The notes under the pieces: model-generated
What the model saw: only the letters and a program-made list of their open reading frames with translations
What the model was told of the DNA's origin: nothing
Database searches by the model: none
Shown here: one piece after another, positions 3,441-59,546 of the stretch
Layout: the number at the start of each line of letters is the position of its first letter
How positions within the stretch are numbered: the stretch's first letter is position 1
Translations under genes and position numbers: made by a program
Source: a phage
Length of the DNA: 64,000 bases
Reading direction: 5' to 3' (one strand)
Assembly (NCBI GenBank): GCA_036253055.1
Contig: GCA_036253055.1_4124.1

Positions 3441-3641
3441 TTAGATGATTCTCCAATCTTCTACCAGGATTTTAATATACCGTACCAGTGATTCGAGTGA
3501 TTCCACTTCCCGATAATCGGTAGCCGTTTGCACTGTACAAGTACAGCCGATCAAGCCATTGCCAAGCTCTTTGATCTGTACATCGATGCAGTTGGCTTTT
3601 GCTTCATTCAGTACTGCAACCAATTCGTTAGCGATTGACAT
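3441..3641 (-). CDS. hypothetical protein
   Basis: 66 aa; SD AGGAG; verified by hand translation. Confidence 0.55.
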   Translation of the reverse strand: MSIANELVAVLNEAKANCIDVQIKELGNGLIGCTCTVQTATDYREVESLESLVRYIKILVEDWRII

Positions 3642-3729
3642 AATGTTTTACTCCTAAAGGTGCGGGAGAACTATTCCCCCGCTCTATGTAAAACATTATA
3701 CATTATCTTGTAGTACTGTCAAATAGTTT

Positions 3730-3987
3730 TTATGAAATATCTTCGATATAGTCGGCCCATGTCATTTGTTCAGTACTATCTAGTGCACCAGGATTATTTG
3801 GATCAAACCATTCGCCATCCCCTAAGTACATTGCAGCCGCTACCGCTTTATAGCCATTATAGGCGTTATTCCACTGCATAGCACGATAGATACGGCCTTT
3901 GATTGGTGTCTGTACTGGTAATGTTTTATGGTCTTCTACGTAGGCCATAGCTTGAGGATTTACCCGATATTGTGTGAACTGTTCCAT
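3730..3987 (-). CDS. hypothetical protein
   Basis: Track start is the promoter TTGACA read as TTG; ATG 3985-3987 used. Confidence 0.5.
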   Translation of the reverse strand: MEQFTQYRVNPQAMAYVEDHKTLPVQTPIKGRIYRAMQWNNAYNGYKAVAAAMYLGDGEWFDPNNPGALDSTEQMTWADYIEDIS

Positions 3988-6590: not shown

Positions 6591-6986
6591 TTAGATAACC
6601 TGGCGGCGTTTACTGTATACTGTTACACGGTTTCCTTTACGGTCATGACGAATCTCTTTCTGGTTACGAATCAGTTCACTTGGACGCTTAAGGTTTGCCA
6701 GGTGATCCGCGTGAGTCCATGCATTTGCGTTAACTGTAACTTCAATATCAGAACCTTTCAAAAAGTCATCTTGAGCGTTCAGTACTTCAGCCAGTTCTTG
6801 AGCTTTCTTCAGTTCTGCTTCAGTAAGTACTGGTTCAGGTGAATTCACAATATCAGAGATCTCTTTGAACTGTACCGCCCAGCGTTGTCCTTTCGGTGCA
6901 TCTTTGCCCATGTCTTTAAATGTTTCACCTTCTTCACGGGCAACGATGCGAGCTTGTTCACGGGTAGCGAAGAATTTAGTAATCAT
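6591..6986 (-). CDS. hypothetical protein, paralog of 19008..19274
   Basis: Shares FATREQARIVAR..GxTFKDMG..RWAV and C-terminal HDRKGNRVTVYS with 19008..19274; start uncertain (6995 or 6986). Confidence 0.5.
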   Translation of the reverse strand: MITKFFATREQARIVAREEGETFKDMGKDAPKGQRWAVQFKEISDIVNSPEPVLTEAELKKAQELAEVLNAQDDFLKGSDIEVTVNANAWTHADHLANLKRPSELIRNQKEIRHDRKGNRVTVYSKRRQVI

Positions 6987-13796: not shown

Positions 13797-14066
13797 TTAA
13801 TAGGTGTATGGTTGACGCTCAAACAATGAATAGACGTTATACGCCCCGCTTATGGGCTTCGCTGGTAAATCAATTTTATATTGTTCACGCTTAAAGATAA
13901 TAAAACGGCAATTGTTTTTAACATCAAAATTGATTGAACGTTCCAGGAGTTTACCATCGTGCACAAATACAAGATAACCGCTTGGTACTTGTTTTGTAGA
14001 ACTGGTTGCAACCATAGACCGACGAACATGTGTACCTGCATCGATTAAAGTACTGATATTTTTCAT
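13797..14066 (-). CDS. hypothetical protein
   Basis: 89 aa; SD AGAGGA. Confidence 0.5.
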   Translation of the reverse strand: MKNISTLIDAGTHVRRSMVATSSTKQVPSGYLVFVHDGKLLERSINFDVKNNCRFIIFKREQYKIDLPAKPISGAYNVYSLFERQPYTY

Positions 14067-21968: not shown

Positions 21969-22008
21969 CAGGCTGAATTTTAACATATGCAACATATGTT
22001 AAAGCCTG
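21969..22008. repeat. large imperfect palindrome centred on TTAACATATG-CAA-CATATGTTAA
   Basis: Perfect 10-bp arms 21980-21989 and 21993-22002, flanked by CAGGCT/AGCCTG. Confidence 0.55.
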
Positions 22009-22044
22009 TATAATGCTTCCACTACGGAGCTTCCCCTAGCTATA

Positions 22045-22236
22045 TTACTTCCTATATATAATCATTAAGATATAGTAGTACTGATTATACTGTACATTCT
22101 CTTTAATATTATAAGGGTCTATAGCAATCTCGGTACATCTGTTAAATGCATATCTATTAAATGCCAGTGGAATTATAGATCTAATCCATACTTGTTCATT
22201 TTCTTTTAGTTTACTTATATAGAAGTTTTTATACAT
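22045..22236 (-). CDS. small protein, paralog family B (about 60 aa)
   Basis: 63 aa; C-terminal YYYILMIIYRK. Confidence 0.5.
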   Translation of the reverse strand: MYKNFYISKLKENEQVWIRSIIPLAFNRYAFNRCTEIAIDPYNIKENVQYNQYYYILMIIYRK

Positions 22237-22251
22237 AGTATTCTCTATTAA

Positions 22252-22434
22252 TTAATATGATAGTACTAGTGTTAGTACTGAGCACAATTGTTCTTTGTAG
22301 TTCTTAGGGTATATAGAATCTTTTATGCACTCATTGAAGTGCCATAGGTATAATCTTGGGTCGCATTCTTTATATATTCTTACGGGGACGAATGTTAGTT
22401 TTCTTATATAGAATTCTTTATGTTCTTTATTCAT
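22252..22434 (-). CDS. small protein, paralog family B
   Basis: MNKEHKEFYIRKL N-terminus. Confidence 0.5.
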   Translation of the reverse strand: MNKEHKEFYIRKLTFVPVRIYKECDPRLYLWHFNECIKDSIYPKNYKEQLCSVLTLVLSY

Positions 22435-22439
22435 ATTAG

Positions 22440-22625
22440 TTAGTGTCTGTATATAAGTAATAGTAAGAATACGTACTGCACATCTTCATCTTTAGTATTG
22501 AGTACTGTACGTATTGCGTCATTAAACAAGAATATAGTACTTGGGTCATGAGAATTTAAAGGGGTTCTGGGTACGGCATGTTTGTAGTTCCCTTTAACAA
22601 ATTGTGTGTAGTATTCTCTATGCAT
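22440..22625 (-). CDS. small protein, paralog family B
   Basis: MHREYYTQF...LLLLIYRH. Confidence 0.5.
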   Translation of the reverse strand: MHREYYTQFVKGNYKHAVPRTPLNSHDPSTIFLFNDAIRTVLNTKDEDVQYVFLLLLIYRH

Positions 22626-22626
22626 A

Positions 22627-22812
22627 TTAGTACCTATATATTAGGGCGAGAATGTAGTACAATTCATATGGAATGTAATTTGGGGTGATCGCACACTGTG
22701 TATGGTAAATGAATTGTTCGGTATTTTTCTTATCCTTGATATCTATTGGGATTAGTGGTATAAGCATTTGGGAGTTTAGATCCAGATGGCTTAAGTAGAA
22801 TTCTTTATGCAT
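22627..22812 (-). CDS. small protein, paralog family B
   Basis: MHKEFYLSHL...YYILALIYRY. Confidence 0.5.
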   Translation of the reverse strand: MHKEFYLSHLDLNSQMLIPLIPIDIKDKKNTEQFIYHTQCAITPNYIPYELYYILALIYRY

Positions 22813-22821
22813 ATTGTTCTC

Positions 22822-23010
22822 TTAGAATACGAAAGCTAGGTACAGGGTATGATACAGTACTCGATGGTAGCTGTCAAAATCTAGTATACATGCTTTAGTG
22901 CACATAGTAAAATACACTTTATCATTTTGTGCATTGATACCGCGAGGTTTATCTAATAGATTAGTTCTGAGGTACATTGGGAAATATTTTGTGTAGTATT
23001 CTTTATGCAT
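22822..23010 (-). CDS. small protein, paralog family B
   Basis: Start moved to internal MHKEYY (ATG 23008-23010) to match family length. Confidence 0.45.
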   Translation of the reverse strand: MHKEYYTKYFPMYLRTNLLDKPRGINAQNDKVYFTMCTKACILDFDSYHRVLYHTLYLAFVF

Positions 23011-23011
23011 G

Positions 23012-23194
23012 TTAGTACCTGAATATAAGTAGGATAGTGTTATATAGCTGGTCATAACTACTACTATTTTCTATACTTCGTTCTATGCAGTTATTGAATC
23101 CCAGTACTGCCAAATCGTTATCCAGAGGGACTTTATATCTGGCGTAGTGTTCAAAAATGCTGGGGAGAAATTGTGTGTAGTATTCTTTGTGCAT
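23012..23194 (-). CDS. small protein, paralog family B
   Basis: MHKEYYTQF...ILLIFRY. Confidence 0.5.
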   Translation of the reverse strand: MHKEYYTQFLPSIFEHYARYKVPLDNDLAVLGFNNCIERSIENSSSYDQLYNTILLIFRY

Positions 23195-23195
23195 A

Positions 23196-23381
23196 TTAGT
23201 ACCTATATATTAGTAAAAGGATGTGATACAGTACTCGATTATAGTCTTCAATATATATCGAGGATTTAGTGCACTGAATGAAGTAGTCTTTTTCGTAGTT
23301 TTTTTCTATACCCAATGGTTCTGTTGGTACAAGGTGTTGGAGATACATTGGGAGTTTCTCTATGTAGTATTCTTTATGCAT
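23196..23381 (-). CDS. small protein, paralog family B
   Basis: MHKEYYIEKLPMYLQ...LLLIYRY. Confidence 0.5.
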   Translation of the reverse strand: MHKEYYIEKLPMYLQHLVPTEPLGIEKNYEKDYFIQCTKSSIYIEDYNRVLYHILLLIYRY

Positions 23382-23382
23382 G

Positions 23383-23571
23383 TTAGTACTTAAATGTTAG
23401 GGCGAGGATGTAATACAGTTTATATGTTCTATCCTCATACATTAGGGTGTACTTAGTACATTCCTGGAACATTGTTTTTGCGTCATCTTTTATGCCCAAT
23501 GCAACGTTTGGTATATGGCTCTGTAGATACATTGGGAGTTTCTCTATGTAGTATTCTTTGTGGTTATTCAT
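23383..23571 (-). CDS. small protein, paralog family B
   Basis: MNNHKEYYIEKLPMYLQ...ILALTFKY. Confidence 0.5.
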   Translation of the reverse strand: MNNHKEYYIEKLPMYLQSHIPNVALGIKDDAKTMFQECTKYTLMYEDRTYKLYYILALTFKY

Positions 23572-23572
23572 A

Positions 23573-23755
23573 TTAGTACCTGAATGTTAGCATTACTACG
23601 TAGTACAGCATATATGGATTATCATCGTATATGAGCGTGTACTTAGTACATTGTTGGAACATTATCTTTGCGTGATCTTTTATTCCTATTGGTTCTGTTG
23701 GTATATGGTGCTGGAGATGCATAGGGATTTTATCCCTGTAGTATTCTTTGTGCAT
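23573..23755 (-). CDS. small protein, paralog family B
   Basis: MHKEYYRDKIPMHLQ...VVMLTFRY. Confidence 0.5.
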   Translation of the reverse strand: MHKEYYRDKIPMHLQHHIPTEPIGIKDHAKIMFQQCTKYTLIYDDNPYMLYYVVMLTFRY

Positions 23756-23765
23756 GTTGTTCTCT

Positions 23766-23948
23766 TTAGTACTTATATATTAGGAGTAAAATGTTATAGT
23801 ACTGGTTCATTGCGTCATCATTTTCTATAGCACGTTTTACGCTATTCATGTAGTTAGATCGAGCGGCACGAGTTATGAGAAGAACTTTGTATGCAGCAAA
23901 GTATTTTTGCTGCACGGGTAGTTTAGAGATATAGTATTCTTTATACAT
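23766..23948 (-). CDS. small protein, paralog family B
   Basis: Start moved to internal MYKEYY (ATG 23946-23948). Confidence 0.45.
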   Translation of the reverse strand: MYKEYYISKLPVQQKYFAAYKVLLITRAARSNYMNSVKRAIENDDAMNQYYNILLLIYKY

Positions 23949-24612
23949 AGTTTGTAATATACGTAATGAGGTGATGCATTTTCTTATTAGTACTGATAAT
24001 TTCCTGTACATGTTTTGTCAGATTGTACGCGTTTTTATAGAGTACTGGATTATCGATTACAGTACTGTACATGAATAGTTCTTCTTCCTGTAGTTCTTTG
24101 TGTTCTAGTTCTTTGAGGAAATCTACAATTGATTTAGTTTCTTCTGTACGTTGTGCTTGCCAGAAGTGCATATTCTCGTGTACTTTTTTTGAACCCATAT
24201 TGTATATGCCACCCATTTGGAATTGTGCTGTATTGACATCGTGGGAGGTGTTACAATTCCCGAAGAAGTATGTATTCCCGAAGTATAGCATTAAAGTGCA
24301 CGGGGTATTATCCAACTGCATATGGATGATGAAGGATGCGTTCTTTAGTACCTTTGTGCTCGTATTAGTACTCAATACTTTTAAATCAGTATTATAGATA
24401 TTCATATAATGAACAGCTATATTATTTTTTTTCATATACAAATCAAGGTTCTTTGATACGTTAACACCATTTGTACTGGATTTTTCCTTTTTATTTCGTT
24501 TCTTTAGTACATTCGGGTGATACGTATATGCAGATGTAACTGATTCTGCCTGAATACTATTGAGGTACTTAAAGTGCTTAAGGTATTGTTTGCTGTGTGC
24601 ATTAAGTTTCAT
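23941..24612 (-). CDS. hypothetical protein (223 aa) inside the family-B array
   Basis: ORF track; AT-rich; no motif recognised; overlaps next gene start by 8 nt. Confidence 0.45.
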   Translation of the reverse strand: MKLNAHSKQYLKHFKYLNSIQAESVTSAYTYHPNVLKKRNKKEKSSTNGVNVSKNLDLYMKKNNIAVHYMNIYNTDLKVLSTNTSTKVLKNASFIIHMQLDNTPCTLMLYFGNTYFFGNCNTSHDVNTAQFQMGGIYNMGSKKVHENMHFWQAQRTEETKSIVDFLKELEHKELQEEELFMYSTVIDNPVLYKNAYNLTKHVQEIISTNKKMHHLITYITNYV

Positions 24613-24622
24613 TTGGTTTCCT

Positions 24623-24802
24623 TTATATAGATGCCAGGGCGAGGATTTCCCTGTAGGGATTATCTTGTGTTAGTACAGCATAAATGCAGCTATTGAGATT
24701 AATATTTTTAGTACTTTTTGTTCCTAGGTTGTAGTAATCAACGAAGGTGTCGTACATGAAACGGTCTTTTATGGTTATACGTTCTATATAGAATTGTTGC
24801 AT
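24623..24802 (-). CDS. small protein, paralog family B (59 aa)
   Basis: Not in track (<60 aa); hand-translated MQQFYIERITIKD...YREILALASI; SD AAGGAA. Confidence 0.45.
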   Translation of the reverse strand: MQQFYIERITIKDRFMYDTFVDYYNLGTKSTKNINLNSCIYAVLTQDNPYREILALASI

Positions 24803-24810
24803 AGTATTCC

Positions 24811-24993
24811 TTAAATAGCGATTAGTTTCATTACTTCTCTGTATGTGTACTTTTCGTTTTGTGCATCTCTTGTGACGACATATAGGAAGGTGTGTTTATC
24901 TTTTTTGTTCCCGCAATTGTAGAAAATATTGAACTTATTGAAGTTGAATCTTTCGGCGTGTTGTAGTTTAGTTAAATAGAATTCTATGTTCAT
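24811..24993 (-). CDS. small protein, paralog family B (subfamily 2)
   Basis: MNIEFYLTKL...YTYREVMKLIAI. Confidence 0.5.
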   Translation of the reverse strand: MNIEFYLTKLQHAERFNFNKFNIFYNCGNKKDKHTFLYVVTRDAQNEKYTYREVMKLIAI

Positions 24994-25001
24994 TTTCTTC
25001 C

Positions 25002-25187
25002 TTACATTTCAATAAGTTTAAGTACTGCTCGGTACGTGTACTTAGTTGTTAGTGCTTCTTTAATAGAAATACAGAAGTAATGTTGTTTGTCTCTTATACT
25101 GCCGCGTTTGTAGTACCACACATGGGAGTTGTGACTGTACTTGTCTCTGTCGGATAGTTGTTGGTAGTAGTAGCTTATATGATTCAT
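25002..25187 (-). CDS. small protein, paralog family B (subfamily 2)
   Basis: ...YTYRAVLKLIEM. Confidence 0.5.
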   Translation of the reverse strand: MNHISYYYQQLSDRDKYSHNSHVWYYKRGSIRDKQHYFCISIKEALTTKYTYRAVLKLIEM

Positions 25188-25239
25188 TATAATGTAATTA
25201 GCCTTACTATATTAAAGTACTCGGTCCCTGGTGTACCTT

Positions 25240-25434
25240 TTAGAACTTAAAGATGAGGTTCAGGATAGAGCGGTACTTAGTTGCAGGGAACGTATGTTCT
25301 ATTGCATCACGTGTCTCCATCCTGAAATCGTAATTGTAATATAGATTATTCTTTCTCATAGGTCGTGCTAAAGAGAATGATAGCTGTTCTTGCTTGTGTA
25401 GTTTACTACAATAGAAATCTTTATGATTATTCAT
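25240..25434 (-). CDS. small protein, paralog family B (subfamily 2)
   Basis: MNNHKDFYCSKL... Confidence 0.45.
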   Translation of the reverse strand: MNNHKDFYCSKLHKQEQLSFSLARPMRKNNLYYNYDFRMETRDAIEHTFPATKYRSILNLIFKF

Positions 25435-25636
25435 AGAAATATATTAGTCCTATTAAACCTGAGTACTGAATATTTTTGTTATTGCATTCGATTGCTTCTA
25501 GAGTACTACGTATACAATTATTAAAGCAATCTCTGGCGTGTGGTGTATCTATACTTAAAGGTGATACACTCCTTAGAAACAATTGTTCTTCGTTGCTAAG
25601 GTATTTGGTGTAGAATTCTTTATGTTCAGTATTCAT
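25427..25636 (-). CDS. small protein, paralog family B
   Basis: MNTEHKEFYTKYL... Confidence 0.45.
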   Translation of the reverse strand: MNTEHKEFYTKYLSNEEQLFLRSVSPLSIDTPHARDCFNNCIRSTLEAIECNNKNIQYSGLIGLIYFYE

Positions 25637-25637
25637 A

Positions 25638-25847
25638 TTAGTACTCGATTAATAGTGTTAAGATGAAATAGTACTGCATAGACTCGTTACCTTCAAGGAA
25701 ATTCCTTATGAGGTTATTTCTGACTGAGTTAAGCAGAAGTGCCGAACGTTTTGCATTTGCAAGTATAATTTGTTGATGCTCTATGCTATTCTGTTCACCT
25801 TTTGACAGAGCACATAGGTAGTACTGCATAATTTGTTCTTGGGTCAT
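25638..25847 (-). CDS. small protein, paralog family B (divergent)
   Basis: 69 aa; ...YYFILTLLIEY. Confidence 0.4.
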   Translation of the reverse strand: MTQEQIMQYYLCALSKGEQNSIEHQQIILANAKRSALLLNSVRNNLIRNFLEGNESMQYYFILTLLIEY

Positions 25848-26089
25848 ATAGATGCCAGTACTAAAAGGTTAATGAATCGTTTACTTTCGTCAGGGTTTTG
25901 AAGTCCCTCAAAGATGTCCTCTATAAAGCAATTCAACATAAGTGCATTTGTTGGGGTAGTACTTTTTTTGAGGGTATTGATTGCACAGAATTTTGAGAGG
26001 AAGAATGCGAAGTCTTCTGCGTTCATGTAGCTCATATAGTTCTTAGTACTTTGGCTAAGTGCTTGGTAGTGATCTATTACATTGTTCAT
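25844..26089 (-). CDS. small hypothetical protein (first gene of array)
   Basis: 81 aa; 4-nt overlap with downstream gene. Confidence 0.4.
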   Translation of the reverse strand: MNNVIDHYQALSQSTKNYMSYMNAEDFAFFLSKFCAINTLKKSTTPTNALMLNCFIEDIFEGLQNPDESKRFINLLVLASI

Positions 26090-46907: not shown

Positions 46908-46974
46908 GTATTCATCCTCTCGTCTTGATGAAATAATTATAGCAAAAAGGGCTGACCGAAGTCAACCCTTTTCT

Positions 46975-47625: not shown

Positions 47626-47877
47626 TTAGAAGAACACAAACCAAGTCCAGAACAAATTCCACATTACAAATAAAGACATAGTGGTTTTATGTACAATATC
47701 AGCAGTACTGGTCCATCCTCCACCGTGTCCTATTCCATTTATGAATAGAACTAAGAACAAGATACCATTTACTACAATAGTACATACTAAGTACACAAAT
47801 ACATTCCATGCAAGTCCAGGGGATACTAAAGTAAATGGTAAAACTATTAGTAGTATTAGAACTAATAATATTTTCAT
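47626..47877 (-). CDS. small membrane protein
   Basis: 83 aa hydrophobic; SD GAGG. Confidence 0.45.
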   Translation of the reverse strand: MKILLVLILLIVLPFTLVSPGLAWNVFVYLVCTIVVNGILFLVLFINGIGHGGGWTSTADIVHKTTMSLFVMWNLFWTWFVFF

Positions 47878-47916: not shown

Positions 47917-48093
47917 TTAGTACGAATCAGATTCCCAGTACTCGATTGCTTCTTTCAGCAATTCTTTAGCACGTTGTTTTGCAATGCGAGCGGGAAACTG
48001 ATATGTGTACATTAACTGACGCTTCACTTCATTCAGTGAAAGCTGTTCATGGTACAGTGCATCCATCAGTCGATTACGAGTACGTAGTTTCAT
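47917..48093 (-). CDS. small hypothetical protein (58 aa)
   Basis: Not in track; hand-translated MKLRTRNRLMDALYHEQLSLNEV...; SD AAGGATAA. Confidence 0.4.
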   Translation of the reverse strand: MKLRTRNRLMDALYHEQLSLNEVKRQLMYTYQFPARIAKQRAKELLKEAIEYWESDSY

Positions 48094-49379: not shown

Positions 49380-49724
49380 CTATCGATTCGGCATATTCTT
49401 TCGTAGTCGCAAGAGAAATTCAACCACTGACCATGTTGTAATGAAGGCAATATAAGTTGCAAGGAATCCAGTAAGAATAAATGCAACCAGCGTACTACCA
49501 TTTGGGGAATCAGTTTTAATGCCGATGACACCATCGGCTACAGTGAAACATGTAGCCATTAATGTGTAACCTACGTACAACACAAAGAAAAACTCATTCT
49601 CCATTGAAGGATAGAAACGGTTAAACACTTTATAAAATTTAAAGTACAGTAGGATTATACCAACAAAGGCATAGAATGTAAACAGTGTTGTTATAATATA
49701 TGAGATTAGGTTCAAATTATACAT
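49380..49724 (-). CDS. small multi-pass membrane protein, paralog family C (second cluster)
   Basis: Start moved to ATG 49722-49724 (SD GGAG); C-terminal RKNMPNR as in the 39.8-42.6 kb array. Confidence 0.45.
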   Translation of the reverse strand: MYNLNLISYIITTLFTFYAFVGIILLYFKFYKVFNRFYPSMENEFFFVLYVGYTLMATCFTVADGVIGIKTDSPNGSTLVAFILTGFLATYIAFITTWSVVEFLLRLRKNMPNR

Positions 49725-49725
49725 A

Positions 49726-50067
49726 TCAACGCTCCGGTAGATTATCACGTAATGTTTTAATTCGATGATACATTTTCATACCAATATTACCAAAGATACC
49801 ATATCCAAGTACTAAAATGTATGCAATAAGCATAGTAATAATTACTATAGTACCAAAACTATAATGTACACTACTGATACCCATTGTAGTTTCAACGATT
49901 ATTTGAGAAACTGAAAGAATCAAAAGTACAACTACAATTGGATGATTTGGGTACATTCGGTTGAACAACGTTTTGTACTTAAAGAAGCACAGTACTCCAC
50001 CGAATAAGAAGTAAACAATGTAAATGCAAGCAACAGCATAGGCAAACATGTTAGTGTAATAAATCAT
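49726..50067 (-). CDS. small multi-pass membrane protein, paralog family C
   Basis: Start moved to ATG 50065-50067 (SD AAGGA); C-terminal RDNLPER. Confidence 0.45.
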   Translation of the reverse strand: MIYYTNMFAYAVACIYIVYFLFGGVLCFFKYKTLFNRMYPNHPIVVVLLILSVSQIIVETTMGISSVHYSFGTIVIITMLIAYILVLGYGIFGNIGMKMYHRIKTLRDNLPER

Positions 50068-50076
50068 TACCAATCC

Positions 50077-50415
50077 TTACTTTTCAGGGATATTAGAACG
50101 CCATATATCAATGCGATGAACTAGTCCAAAGAACAACCATACTGGAACGGCAGCTATCATAACAACAAATGAAAACCCAGTCAACACCGATACCAGATTT
50201 AATTCATCAGTACTATACCCACATATCAGTACTTCTAATATTCCCCACGTACAGGCACAAAACATCAAGAATGAAATTGGGGCATCATAGTAGATACGTT
50301 CATATAAAGTAGTATATCGGAAGAATGCAATAATATAGCAAAACATATAATACACCCAAACCAAAGATACTACATAAAATGATACTTTGTTTATTAATTC
50401 AAAATATTGTTCCAT
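50077..50415 (-). CDS. small multi-pass membrane protein, paralog family C
   Basis: 112 aa; C-terminal RSNIPEK. Confidence 0.5.
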   Translation of the reverse strand: MEQYFELINKVSFYVVSLVWVYYMFCYIIAFFRYTTLYERIYYDAPISFLMFCACTWGILEVLICGYSTDELNLVSVLTGFSFVVMIAAVPVWLFFGLVHRIDIWRSNIPEK

Positions 50416-50417
50416 TT

Positions 50418-50699
50418 TTACCCCAATATATATTCAGAGAGTAATGTATTAGCTTCATCTTTGTTCTTAAGGTAATACATGTAATATAGATTCGGTTCAC
50501 CATCTTTAGTACTCAAATCGAAGTACTTTAAACTATGTACTTTCATAGTAAAAACAAATAATGACTTAAAACCAATCTCACCGTACTTAATAAACAGTTC
50601 ATCCAAATGAATGTAACTTTTTGATTTGGATAATTCTTTAACGTCTGCATCAATTTCAGATAAAAGATGCTTACCTATTAAGTTTTCAAATGAACGCAT
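50418..50699 (-). CDS. hypothetical protein
   Basis: 93 aa; SD AAAGGA. Confidence 0.5.
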   Translation of the reverse strand: MRSFENLIGKHLLSEIDADVKELSKSKSYIHLDELFIKYGEIGFKSLFVFTMKVHSLKYFDLSTKDGEPNLYYMYYLKNKDEANTLLSEYILG

Positions 50700-50760
50700 G
50701 ATTTTATCCTTTACCGCAATTTTTATGGTTTATTAAGAATACACCAGAACATCAGTTCTG

Positions 50761-51402
50761 TCAATAAAAAACTGGATCTTCTTCAGTAATTGGTATTTCT
50801 CTACGCACATCACACGAAAGAGGATCAGTAATGAATACATTCCCATCTTTATCCATCATTACATTACTTGAATGAATGTCTGGTACAAAACGCCCGTGAA
50901 ACTCTTTCATGATGTTAGCAGCGACCGTTGCAATAGCAATCTCTTCAGAATTACCACGCATATCATTCACTGAAGTAGCGTACTGACCAGCATGTGCATA
51001 AGAATATAAATCTCCAATTTTAGTACTAACAAAGTCATCATAATTATTTTTTTGTTTAATTATAGGATAGTACTTGTCCATCTCATACCATCCAAAGTTT
51101 CCTTGTTCGTTGGCACTGTAGATCACTGGAAGAAACTTGGTTCCTGCGTTTTCAATGCAGTACTTTGCATAAGCACGAAAACCATCCCAGCGTGAAGTGG
51201 TTACTTTAAATGCACGCCCAGGATAGTTTTTATGTTCAACTACTACAGAGTACATCCCCATTCCAAGCAAAGTAAGTCCAGCAGCTTTAACTTGTGGAAA
51301 GATTACGCGTTCAGCATAAGGAATATCAAACTCCATCGCACAACGAGTTTTTGATGGACGCAAAATGTCAATTAAAGTTTTGAATATTTCTTGCTTAGTC
51401 AT
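50761..51402 (-). CDS. protein kinase-like / phosphotransferase-like protein
   Basis: Start moved to ATG 51400-51402 (SD GAGGA); catalytic-loop-like DIHSSNVMM and ITDP (DFG-position). Confidence 0.45.
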   Translation of the reverse strand: MTKQEIFKTLIDILRPSKTRCAMEFDIPYAERVIFPQVKAAGLTLLGMGMYSVVVEHKNYPGRAFKVTTSRWDGFRAYAKYCIENAGTKFLPVIYSANEQGNFGWYEMDKYYPIIKQKNNYDDFVSTKIGDLYSYAHAGQYATSVNDMRGNSEEIAIATVAANIMKEFHGRFVPDIHSSNVMMDKDGNVFITDPLSCDVRREIPITEEDPVFY

Positions 51403-51471
51403 TACTTTATCCTCTGTAGTTAATATCAACATCATAACAAAAAAGGCTGACCGAAGTCAACCCTTTTATTA

Positions 51472-51891
51472 TCATTTACAGTTTTCTATAACTATTGCAC
51501 GTTTTAGTATTTTACTTTCATAAACATACTTAAGATGACCTTCTTCACGAATACGATTGAACACATATCCTAGTTTATCTTTTAGTACTGAAGCGGTATC
51601 AATGTCAAGATTAACTTCAACCCCTCCTGTTAATTTAACTTTATATGTAAAGCTAAAAGCATCACCAGATTCAACCAATGGGACTACTTGTTCATACGTA
51701 TTCAACATAACTCGTTCATCATTAACTAAATTATATATTACAATATCACAAGTTTTTACCCCAATTTCCTCTAATGTAGGAGCATTATCTACTATAACAT
51801 CTTTTACTGTATTTGCAACCTGTTTAGCATCTGCTGCATATACATTAAAACTAAAAAGTACTAAAATAATACTTAAAAAAATCTTTTTCAT
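51472..51891 (-). CDS. secreted protein (signal peptide)
   Basis: N-terminus MKKIFLSIILVLFSFNVYA; SD AAGGA. Confidence 0.55.
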   Translation of the reverse strand: MKKIFLSIILVLFSFNVYAADAKQVANTVKDVIVDNAPTLEEIGVKTCDIVIYNLVNDERVMLNTYEQVVPLVESGDAFSFTYKVKLTGGVEVNLDIDTASVLKDKLGYVFNRIREEGHLKYVYESKILKRAIVIENCK

Positions 51892-52486: not shown

Positions 52487-52558
52487 TGTAATCCCTCTTC
52501 TTAATTCCTCTTTTATATTTACAAAAAAAAGGTTGACCGAAGTCAACCTTTTAAATGT

Positions 52559-54046: not shown

Positions 54047-54133
54047 TTGATTTCTCTCCATAGATTTCATTTTTTTCTCTATGTCTATATTTATAGTATA
54101 AAGAAAAGGCTGACCGAAGTCAACCTTATTTTG

Positions 54134-54247: not shown

Positions 54248-54315
54248 ATATGATACCTCAGTTATATTGAGAAGTTATGATACAACAAAGGGCTGACCTT
54301 AGTCAACCCTTTTTA

Positions 54316-57489: not shown

Positions 57490-57543
57490 AATTAAAATCC
57501 TCTAATTTATTAAGAGAATTATAACAAAAAAGGCTGACCGAAG

Positions 57544-57735
57544 TCAACCTTTGTTTTGAAGTTCTTGAACTAATTGTCGTACTTCGTTAATATTTTTACA
57601 CTGCTTTACAGTGAAGTAATCATACTTACGACCATAGGTTCTTGGGTCATCACCTTCCATATACTGCTGCACATCAAAGATTTGTAAGTAGGGATGCTGC
57701 ATAACACGAATATTATCACCTTGATAAATCAACAT
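57544..57735 (-). CDS. small hypothetical protein
   Basis: Start moved to ATG 57733-57735 (SD AAGGA). Confidence 0.4.
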   Translation of the reverse strand: MLIYQGDNIRVMQHPYLQIFDVQQYMEGDDPRTYGRKYDYFTVKQCKNINEVRQLVQELQNKG

Positions 57736-58092: not shown

Positions 58093-58470
58093 TTATTTTC
58101 CTCCAACGTTAAGTGATTTCTTGTACTGATATTCTTTATAAGTACTATACCATATATCACCAACGTAAATCAAGTACCACGTAGCAGGATAAAGAGCCAA
58201 TCCAGTACTGATATATACGAACTTTTGGTCAAGGACATCAAATACATACAGAAGGAAAGTTACTCCCATAATGCAAGAACAAATTAACCACAAGTTATAA
58301 GCAATCGAATCGCAAGCAAAAATAGAATCAAGCTTAGAAATTAGGACATATTTGTTTGTTAAAATGAAATGAATTACTGCAACTAAACAATATCCTGCCA
58401 TAAAAATAGAAATTAAAAAAGACAGAATAATTGGAATATTCAACAACAAAAGTAAAATAGTGTTTACCAT
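58093..58470 (-). CDS. multi-pass membrane protein
   Basis: 125 aa hydrophobic. Confidence 0.45.
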   Translation of the reverse strand: MVNTILLLLLNIPIILSFLISIFMAGYCLVAVIHFILTNKYVLISKLDSIFACDSIAYNLWLICSCIMGVTFLLYVFDVLDQKFVYISTGLALYPATWYLIYVGDIWYSTYKEYQYKKSLNVGGK

Positions 58471-58919: not shown

Positions 58920-59246
58920 TTACATCTTATTCGTGAACTTGAATTTGATAATATCAATCCAAATTTTAACATTTCCTGCAAATAGTGCTTTGATTAGCCA
59001 CATAATTGCAACAAAGTTCTCAACTAAATCCAAAGTTTTAACTACTGCACCGAGTGGGAAGATAAAACTCAAAACCCATACAATTACTGAAACCACAACG
59101 ACTGTATAGAAAATACGCACAATCGGTGAATCAAGCATAAACAACTCAGAGAACTCTTTTTTATCATTATCATCAGTAATAAAGCATTCGTAAACCAGAA
59201 GCCAAATCAGAATTAAAGACGGAATTGAAATTAGTACTGATAGCAT
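58920..59246 (-). CDS. membrane protein
   Basis: 108 aa; SD GAGGT; early-type promoter at about 59270-59310. Confidence 0.5.
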   Translation of the reverse strand: MLSVLISIPSLILIWLLVYECFITDDNDKKEFSELFMLDSPIVRIFYTVVVVSVIVWVLSFIFPLGAVVKTLDLVENFVAIMWLIKALFAGNVKIWIDIIKFKFTNKM

Positions 59247-59303: not shown

Positions 59304-59546
59304 CTACGAACGTTTGTCAACATTTGTTTCTTCAATAAGCATAAGATAACTTAACACGAAGAGTAATACCGAAATAATATCAATAACTGTAAAGCTCACT
59401 GGAATGATAATAGACACCAGTACTAATGCCACGTTTAGCAAGAATACAGTAGTGAGATCTACCATCGTTCGTCTAGTGGCTAATGCCACTAGTGTAGGAT
59501 AGAACATAAACAATAGTGCAACAACAAAACTTAGTACTAGATACAT
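59304..59546 (-). CDS. membrane protein
   Basis: 80 aa hydrophobic; SD AAGGTGA. Confidence 0.5.
   Translation of the reverse strand: MYLVLSFVVALLFMFYPTLVALATRRTMVDLTTVFLLNVALVLVSIIIPVSFTVIDIISVLLFVLSYLMLIEETNVDKRS

Follow-up and report, generated by a model that had tools for sequence, protein, structure and literature searches.

Introduction

Small membrane proteins are among the least understood products of phage genes, and those that are known often decide superinfection exclusion, the timing of lysis, or counter-defence. T4 Imm, a small inner-membrane superinfection-exclusion protein, is single-copy, has two helices, and is shorter than the proteins treated here. Class I holins such as lambda S105 are small proteins with three membrane helices, an N-out/C-in orientation, and a basic cytoplasmic C-terminal tail. 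Large eukaryotic DNA viruses carry whole multigene families, such as the multigene families (MGFs) of African swine fever virus (ASFV) and the host-range families of poxviruses. Here we describe 11 small membrane-protein genes in a 64,000-nt stretch of phage DNA (NCBI GenBank assembly GCA_036253055.1, contig GCA_036253055.1_4124.1; "the window" hereafter), three of them at 49380-50415 (the B cluster) and eight at 39841-42621 (the A array), which we show to be members of one old gene family.

The family shares with the ASFV and poxvirus families the clustering of diverged paralogs, a variable copy number, a giant genome, and greater variability than the core genes; the families are not homologous, their hosts and types of protein differ, and the analogy is evolutionary only. 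A second comparison concerns the intergenic elements that accompany the genes. In T4-type phages, composite terminator/promoter cassettes termed PeSL have been implicated in the modular shuffling of hyperplastic regions (Arbiol 2010, PMC2839356; Comeau 2014, PMC4122927).

The same proteins or their orthologs are already present in databases, for example as UniProt L7TI41 ("Transmembrane protein") of phage PBECO4 and as "putative membrane proteins" of Pectobacterium phage CBB, whose genome paper counts 43 "conserved putative membrane proteins" and analyses them no further (PMC5259590). Databases distribute them over seven unrelated PHROG families of unknown function, where we find a single superfamily with a topology, motifs, a copy-number history, and hypervariable islands. 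The novelty lies in the unification into one family, its evolutionary history, the hypervariable-island pattern, and the PeSL-like context; the genes themselves have been catalogued before.

Results and Discussion

The Window and Its Two Gene Clusters

Between positions 48000 and 52000 the window does not differ from Escherichia phage 121Q (KM507819/NC_025447; 100% identity), and this region has matches in 46 phage records. Over 26 kb the identity to the 121Q record is 99.7% (70 mismatches, 6 gaps), and the window is therefore 121Q or a very close relative. Phage 121Q is an Asteriusvirus jumbo phage of E. coli with a 348.5-kb genome; B1, B2, and B3 correspond to its gp209, gp208, and gp207, and A1-A8 to its gp232 to gp224, all on the minus strand. 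We compared the syntenic loci of 10 relatives: A4, PHA46, RaK2, BF17, KP13-7, Turkey5, Hallingskeid, EJP2, XbC2, and fENko-Kae01. The first of these is called "phage A4" throughout, "A4" alone being the fourth gene of the A array (40946-41260). The genes of the two clusters are as follows, with E-values for the converged family hidden Markov model (HMM) and lengths in amino acids (aa).

49380..49724, minus strand: B1 (gp209), 114 aa, predicted three-helix membrane protein, C-terminus LRLRKNMPNR, family HMM 1.5e-20
49726..50067, minus strand: B2 (gp208), 113 aa, predicted three-helix membrane protein, C-terminus LRDNLPER, family HMM 2.3e-16
50077..50415, minus strand: B3 (gp207), 112 aa, predicted three-helix membrane protein, C-terminus WRSNIPEK, family HMM 6.3e-21
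39841..40212, minus strand: A1 (gp232), 123 aa, family HMM 3.2e-20, first reached at HMM iteration 3 (3.6e-5)
40214..40576, minus strand: A2 (gp231), 120 aa, family HMM member, hhalign probability of B versus A2 75-86%
40578..40946, minus strand: A3 (gp230), 122 aa, hhalign probability 86-88% with A2 and 87-91% with A1
40946..41260, minus strand: gene A4, 104 aa, open reading frame (ORF) intact in the window, RaK2 ortholog at bootstrap 98
41260..41598, minus strand: A5 (gp227), 112 aa, C-terminus LRAKVPDARY, RaK2 ortholog at bootstrap 99
41595..41942, minus strand: A6 (gp226), 115 aa, C-terminus LRNKIPEE, family member
41942..42292, minus strand: A7 (gp225), 116 aa, family member
42280..42621, minus strand: A8 (gp224), 113 aa, paralog of A7 (47% identical; blastp 5e-35)

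At window position 41097, NC_025447 has a homopolymer of seven A residues and the window one of six; gene A4 is split into gp228/gp229 in the record. The probable cause is an artefact of sequencing or annotation in the record, or else a difference between strains.

Three back-to-back genes of about 112-114 aa had been noted at the B position in a preliminary description of the window, and their existence is confirmed. All three are hypothetical in the 121Q annotation. Each B gene has a Shine-Dalgarno site (in B1, GGAG 8 nt upstream) and the stop-to-start gaps are 1-9 nt, B1 starting 1 nt past the B2 stop, so the genes are translationally coupled. Their ratios of nonsynonymous to synonymous substitution (dN/dS) against BF17 are 0.30 for B1, 0.14 for B2, and 0.17 for B3, and B2 is 100% identical in 21 phage records and 83-85% identical in the BF17 group. 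B1-B3 are thus real, translationally coupled genes under purifying selection. The two clusters lie 6.8 kb apart, close to the 7 kb first estimated.

Homology of the B Cluster and the A Array

The preliminary description had treated all 11 genes as one family and proposed pairwise alignment as the test, which proved borderline. In a database of the 11 sequences, blastp connects the B genes with one another (B1-B2, 2e-5; B2-B3, 1e-9; B1-B3, 6e-3), and the best pair across the clusters is B3-A1 (E=1e-3, 23% identity over 112 aa), followed by B1-A6 (0.06); the remaining A-B pairs are not significant, and direct comparison is too weak to decide. In PHROGs, B1-B3 belong to phrog_19285 (E=3.3e-4, 1.4e-58, and 3.9e-59, respectively) and the A genes to six other families (19454, 19046, 27396, 33258, 26405, and 27618), with no cross hits.

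The connection is made by transitive and profile searches. As a homology database we used 357 small coding-strand ORFs from the syntenic loci together with their reversed sequences as decoys, which retain composition and hydrophobic segment structure. Single linkage with phmmer at E<=1e-5 brings B1-B3 and A6-A8 into one component of 35 members. The bridge is a Turkey5 B-position gene (L007 7024-7359) with matches to B1 (8e-8) and to the A7/8 ortholog of phage A4 (5e-8); that ortholog in turn matches window A7 at 4e-26. Relaxing the cutoff to E<=1e-3 connects all 11 genes, and reversed decoys gave no hits at E<=1e-4.

An HMM built from 11 B-position genes only, and then iterated over the syntenic-loci ORFs and decoys, first finds single genes in RaK2 (3561-3884, 1e-11), PHA46 (11677, 5e-10), fENko (9676), and XbC2 (12464, 4e-9) and after those the A-array genes of other phages. 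At iteration 2, with a profile still free of window A genes, it reaches A7 (2.9e-12), A6 (2.7e-10), and A8 (5.8e-7) as well as A2 (1.9e-4), gene A4 (2.1e-4), and A5 (7e-4). The search converges on 88 proteins, all at array positions and with the best decoy at 0.004, and it recruits no other small membrane protein of these loci. Profile-profile comparison with hhalign agrees: the B-lineage profile matches the A7/8 group with 96.1% probability (E=3e-9, 101 columns) and the A6 group with 96.2% (E=2.3e-9), and reversed controls reach at most 0.2%. A5, gene A4, and A2 are intermediate against B (35-86%), and A3 and A1 are linked mainly via A2 and A3 (86-91%).

Because transitive and profile searches with decoy controls separate the real genes from the decoys, the homology of the B cluster and the A array is established, though only by sensitive methods of this kind. 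By the same sequence comparisons the members of the family are linked like a chain, the B branch lying close to the centre. Were the resemblance convergent, arising in unrelated membrane proteins of similar hydrophobic composition and length, one would expect the weak direct A-B matches, the separate PHROG families, and the mean column identity of only 15% in the 78-member family alignment. Convergence does not predict that real A genes score between 1e-12 and 1e-21 where decoys of equal composition and hydrophobic segments never fall below 0.004, that reversed hhalign profiles fail, that the other small membrane proteins of these loci are passed over, that one Turkey5 gene matches both sides at about 1e-7, or that the FFK and R-x-K/N-x-P-E/D motifs occupy the same alignment columns in A and B. 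Convergence without homology is largely rejected by the decoy controls, and we give it a very slim chance.

Extent of the Family

The converged family HMM finds exactly 11 members among all ORFs of the window, the number given in the preliminary description, and the rest of the 121Q record (about 284 kb) yields no further member in an HMM scan even at E<=10, and hence no third cluster. An exhaustive HMM search of 1.84 billion representative proteins returned only 52 at E<=1e-3, all of 89-132 aa; the match covers essentially the whole protein in all but one, where it covers about three quarters. The named cluster members that we checked are all from 121Q-group Escherichia jumbo phages (Asteriusvirus) or from E. 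coli assemblies, with contigs of up to about 350 kb. A word-indexed search of 5.8 billion proteins added little diversity, the B profile yielding 11 clusters and the whole-family profile 14. On the evidence of these sequence searches the 11-gene family is found only in Rak2-like jumbo phages. Searches of Pfam, NCBIfam, PADLOC, and PHROGs outside the family's own phrogs gave only scattered sub-threshold hits to unrelated membrane families (DUF350, SLAC1, PycTM), and an HMM search of Protein Data Bank (PDB) sequences gave nothing significant, the best match being a designed binder at E=0.0028.

In EJP2 a 114-aa family member, EJP02_437 (WEM33498.1), lies about 48 genes upstream of the NrdC.10-like gene and outside the fetched locus; other phages therefore have extra dispersed copies at places unlike those of 121Q. 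Within the window, small predicted membrane proteins encoded on the minus strand at 58093-58470, 58920-59246, 59304-59546, and 47626-47877 are outside the family (no HMM hit at E<=10).

Predicted Architecture and Conserved Motifs

All 11 proteins are predicted to be three-helix inner-membrane proteins of about 105-125 aa with an N-out/C-in topology. The shared architecture noted earlier holds, in that three hydrophobic spans occur at similar positions in all 11 (with A5 escaping the hydropathy filter). Averaged over the 78 members, lysines and arginines together number 0.31 ahead of helix 1 and 0.36 in loop 2, against 2.33 in loop 1 and 4.32 in the C-terminal tail, which gives N-out/C-in by the positive-inside rule. 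B1-B3 share the features that define membership, namely a length of about 100-130 aa, three hydrophobic helices, and a K/R distribution predicting this topology. An AlphaFold2 model of B3 from a 24-sequence alignment (mean predicted local distance difference test score 73.8) has helices at residues 2-31, 35-41, 45-65, and 74-107, of which the short one at 35-41 would be cytoplasmic.

Conserved features are a W-F-F-K/R motif at the cytoplasmic end of helix 1, with a nearly invariant F (YFKF in B1, FFKY in B2, FFRY in B3), a G opening the periplasmic loop, and a C-terminal L-R-x-K/N-I/L-P-E/D motif. The R about 7 residues from the C-terminus is the consensus residue of the 78-member alignment and is present in B1-B3. 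In the predicted topology the conserved parts would mostly face the cytoplasm, the helices and periplasmic loop being variable. A C-terminal R-x-N-x-P-E motif had been described as common to both clusters; in its exact form it occurs only in B2 (RDNLPE) and B3 (RSNIPE), with RKNMPN in B1 and no instance in the A array. The relaxed form R-x-[NK]-x-P-[EDN] does span the clusters, fitting B1, A6 (RNKIPE), and A5 (RAKVPD) in addition to B2 and B3. In A7 and A8 the proline is missing, and the tails of A1-A4 are basic, of the H/R...KKRKR type. Within the last 14 residues the relaxed motif is found in 20 of the 78 members and only once among 789 other ORFs of the same loci, in a KP13-7 family member that had been left out of the 78. 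At the sequence level it is thus a true family signature, not a chance match.

Evolutionary History

In a neighbour-joining tree of the 78 members with bootstrap, each A gene groups with the same-position genes of BF17, phage A4, Turkey5, and RaK2, A1 having orthologs in all four, and the groups of gene A4 and A5 include the RaK2 ortholog at bootstrap 98-99. Given the positional orthologs in RaK2, the array and its order are older than the split between Asteriusvirus and Alcyoneusvirus. The only comparatively recent duplication is that of A7/A8, of which the BF17 group has a single gene. Whether the clusters are monophyletic had been raised in the preliminary description. B1-B3 do form one clade with their BF17 orthologs, the phage A4 gene at 13977, and the Turkey5 genes at 6692 and 7725, with weak support (18-77%).

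With the B-only HMM, every A gene ranks below the single genes of RaK2, PHA46, fENko, and XbC2, from which the B branch emerges as an old, separate lineage. It is single-copy in RaK2/KP13-7, PHA46/fENko, XbC2, EJP2, and phage A4 and three-copy in 121Q/BF17 and Turkey5; among the relatives, copy number is 1-3 for B and 4-11 for A. The triplication is older than the 121Q-BF17 split, across which synonymous divergence (dS) is about 0.55-0.70. The B branch is therefore, by sequence comparison, old and was triplicated locally in tandem in the 121Q/BF17 lineage. The repeated duplication proposed at first is borne out by the B triplication and by A7/A8, with the correction that, A7/A8 comparatively excepted, these events are old. 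No recent transposition is indicated: the paralogs have no DNA-level similarity to one another, no repeats flank the B cluster specifically, and 121Q has no further copies.

The dN/dS of A1-A7 against BF17 is 0.10-0.37, and that of the NrdC.10-like gene next to the array 0.04; the B and A genes are functional and under relaxed purifying selection. Their divergence stands out from that of their surroundings. In the comparison with phage A4, identity is 92-99% for the flanking genes (NrdC.10-like gene 99%, denV 94%, gp212 95%, gp214 98%), only 24-67% for the A genes, and only 26-36% for the B-lineage homolog set against B2 and B3 (B1 was not scored). Against BF17, A1 (63%), A2 (73%), and B1 (72%) likewise fall below their neighbours (92-97%). 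With divergence so far above that of the flanks, both clusters are hypervariable islands. In phage A4 the whole A array differs from that of 121Q as a block, its members grouping with Turkey5 alleles.

Exchange of neighbouring segments is seen in phage CRJP21, in which both clusters are about 100% identical to the window and window 42906-45402, comprising the endonuclease gene gp221 and most of the NrdC.10-like gene, is replaced (L020 7266-9555). Modules of this region are exchanged independently of one another. The NrdC.10-like ATPase occurs as two alleles (>=95% versus about 58% aa identity) among Asteriusviruses that are otherwise about 97-99% identical, and the position of gp221 in the swapped segment suggests nuclease-associated cassette exchange. 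An apparent loss of A2 in CRJP21 was rejected; the gene is intact and merely unannotated.

Transcriptional Context and PeSL-like Elements

Each cluster belongs to a minus-strand unit, with the following associated features.

50418..50699, minus strand: gp206, 93-aa soluble protein, first gene of the gp206-B3-B2-B1 unit, phrog_37917 (function unknown)
50736..50764, minus strand: sigma-70-like promoter by consensus match in the kinase-gp206 intergenic gap, TTGACA-17-TATTCT, spacer containing an inverted repeat
50761..51435, minus strand: gp205, T7 Gp0.7-like protein kinase (host-takeover type), phrog_15752 at 1.2e-98, protein kinase in the 121Q record
51398..51483, minus strand: PeSL-like element (core 51441-51465) heading kinase gp205-gp206-B3-B2-B1, -19.1 kcal/mol, z -4.5, TATGAT, repeat families D1 and D2
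42651..42679, minus strand: sigma-70-like promoter by consensus match in the intergenic gap separating A8 from the NrdC.10-like gene, TTGACA-17-TACTAT, spacer containing an inverted repeat
42687..43457, minus strand: gp223, NrdC.10-like P-loop/AAA ATPase, tblastn matches to T4-type NrdC.10
43453..43538, minus strand: PeSL-like element (core 43496-43520) heading the unit of NrdC.10 and A8-A1, -19.6 kcal/mol, z -5.7, TTGACT-18-TATAAT
43496-43520, 45664-45688, 46946-46970, 51441-51465, 52527-52551, 54104-54128, 54287-54311, 57528-57552, minus strand: PeSL-like core copies
39811..39834, no strand assigned: 10-bp perfect hairpin (ATCCAGTACT/AGTACTGGAT) between the A1 stop and the gp233 start

The PeSL-like elements share a 25-nt core, AAGGGTTGACTTCGGTCAGCCCTTT, of which there are eight minus-strand copies between 43.5 and 57.5 kb and none expected by chance. 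The core folds into a hairpin of 8 bp with a UUCG loop, and a U-run comes after it; the stem holds TTGACT, and TATAAT or TATGAT lies 17-18 nt downstream. The elements punctuate a minus-strand gene block of early type. They resemble the PeSL of T4-type phages in being repeated, intergenic, and composed of a strong terminator hairpin and a sigma-70 early promoter in a region of small variable genes, and differ in that their sequence, judged without direct comparison, is apparently another one and their host genome is that of a Rak2-like jumbo phage. Behind one such element lies gp205 as the first gene, then a sigma-70-like promoter, then gp206, whose stop is 2 nt ahead of the B3 start. Homologs of gp206 occur in BF17, phage A4, Turkey5, and EJP2, and a gene of gp206-like size lies directly upstream of a B-lineage gene in BF17, phage A4, and Turkey5.

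The A array adjoins gp223 and lies downstream of it in the direction of transcription. A NrdC.10-like gene is immediately upstream of the array in 11/11 relatives examined; the Pfam AAA matches of gp223 are sub-threshold or barely at threshold, and the T4-type phages RB3 and nt-1, which have NrdC.10, have no such array. From the promoter sequences, transcription of both clusters would be early and by host RNA polymerase. The hairpin at 39811..39834, whose T-run is on the plus strand only, is a possible end of the A-array transcript. GTACT...AGTAC inverted repeats also occur in the promoter spacer upstream of A8, and the two may represent a shared regulatory or processing motif.

Possible Functions

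The explanation that we favour overall, with moderate confidence, is that of an old homologous family of 11 genes, triplicated in the B branch, that acts as an early envelope-modifying battery. Both clusters would be transcribed early, each behind a PeSL-like element and then an internal sigma-70-like promoter, and the proteins would insert into the host inner membrane with the W-F-F-K/R and C-terminal motifs facing the cytoplasm, where these could contribute to a common topology or to docking. The membrane target would differ from paralog to paralog, with superinfecting phages excluded or membrane-associated host defences blunted as the outcome. Dispersal into two clusters would most plausibly have come about by recombination inside a hyperplastic early region and not through a mobile element. 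We prefer the envelope battery because the context is of early type, next to a T7 Gp0.7-like kinase, because copy number varies, and because the divergence is island-like. A cell-envelope role in superinfection exclusion or counter-defence is suggested by analogy, foremost with T4 Imm, to which these proteins are similar as small phage inner-membrane proteins (predicted here) of an early-gene region; unlike Imm, none of the 78 members has a Pfam Imm_superinfect hit. The "superinfection immunity protein" gene of Hallingskeid (L008 8634-8909) is not in the three-helix family.

Several observations weigh against this explanation. Pfam, NCBIfam, PADLOC, and PDB sequence and fold searches give nothing specific on function, and in the literature on 121Q, PBECO4, RaK2, Sharanji, and Asteriusvirus transcriptomics we found no functional, expression, or transcriptome data for these genes, early expression being deduced from promoter consensus. 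Sigma-70-like matches are no more numerous in the region than by chance, the argument being their intergenic position. The one replacement examined, that of CRJP21, breaks inside genes at both ends and not at PeSL-like elements. Deep nodes of the tree are unresolved (bootstrap <20%), for which reason the monophyly of the B branch rests mainly on the HMM ranking. Lastly, the order of A1-A8, their one-to-one orthology, and purifying selection fit a fixed co-operating set, such as a hetero-oligomer, at least as well.

That last point leads to the main rival, in which the paralogs are subunits or co-adapted partners of one phage membrane assembly (a hetero-oligomeric pore, a scaffold, or an anchor), possibly together with the NrdC.10-like ATPase. 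One-to-one positional orthologs of A1-A8 in the same order in RaK2, Turkey5, and phage A4 speak for it, as do purifying selection, the divergence of the phage A4 array as a block (grouping with Turkey5 alleles) between 92-99% flanks, the constant place of the NrdC.10-like gene, and the conserved cytoplasmic motifs, which could be a shared docking site. An array of 4 to 11 genes would be unusual for a fixed complex, however, and T4-type phages have NrdC.10 without such an array. CRJP21, moreover, has a swapped NrdC.10 allele (58.9% identity) next to an A array that is still about 100% identical, which makes tight co-adaptation of the array and the ATPase unlikely. On balance we consider an assembly unlikely, if the most credible of the rivals. 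A bolder version of the battery, in which the 11 paralogs are diversifying membrane-embedded inhibitors akin to the multigene families of giant eukaryotic viruses, each directed at a different membrane-associated host defence effector or at the DNA-entry route of a competitor phage, with whole arrays swapped as cassettes from one phage lineage to another and the cytoplasmic L-R-x-K-I-P-E motif docking a common partner of phage or host origin, appears to us a decidedly speculative proposal and less probable than an assembly.

A lysis-timing role as holin- or antiholin-like proteins is suggested by architecture. Like class I holins, the proteins are small (104-123 aa), with three predicted helices, a predicted N-out/C-in topology, and a K/R-rich C-terminal tail (mean 4.3 K+R), and the 121Q annotation, as read, assigns no holin. 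Unlike holins, they are encoded by 11 genes in two clusters among early-type genes behind sigma-70-like promoters, and none of the 78 members matches a Pfam holin family at E<=0.1 or any in NCBIfam. Their position is not that of a lysis cassette, the clusters being at 106 and 114-116 kb of the record and the lysozyme genes at 254 kb (gp532, the endolysin, >100 kb away) and 315-318 kb (gp586/587). Conservation of gene order over long evolutionary distances is also not typical of holins, and we judge this role improbable, below even the diversifying inhibitors. The early envelope-modifying battery remains our preferred reading.

Other Features of the Region

Upstream of the kinase gene, gp204 (51472-51891, minus strand) encodes a 139-aa protein that matches nothing in PHROGs or Pfam; from its typical signal peptide at the N-terminus (MKKIFLSIILVLFSFNVYA/AD) it is probably exported. 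It is only 41% identical in BF17, where its neighbours are 86-97% identical. On the plus strand, a long array of RCC1-repeat ("regulator of chromosome condensation"-like) paralogs at about 22000-39155 of the window (e.g., 38259-39155) converges on the A array. Similar RCC1-repeat arrays, varying in copy number, are present in all fetched relatives.

Conclusions

Modular shuffling as described for T4-type phages may, to judge from the PeSL-like elements of this region, extend to Rak2-like jumbo phages. In a stretch of Asteriusvirus genomes where conservation is otherwise 92-99%, no loci vary more than the two clusters, a pattern that makes them candidate determinants of compatibility between phages, or between phage and host, among jumbo coliphages. 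Several phages of this kind have been isolated as candidate therapeutic or biocontrol agents, and the 11 short genes are directly testable.

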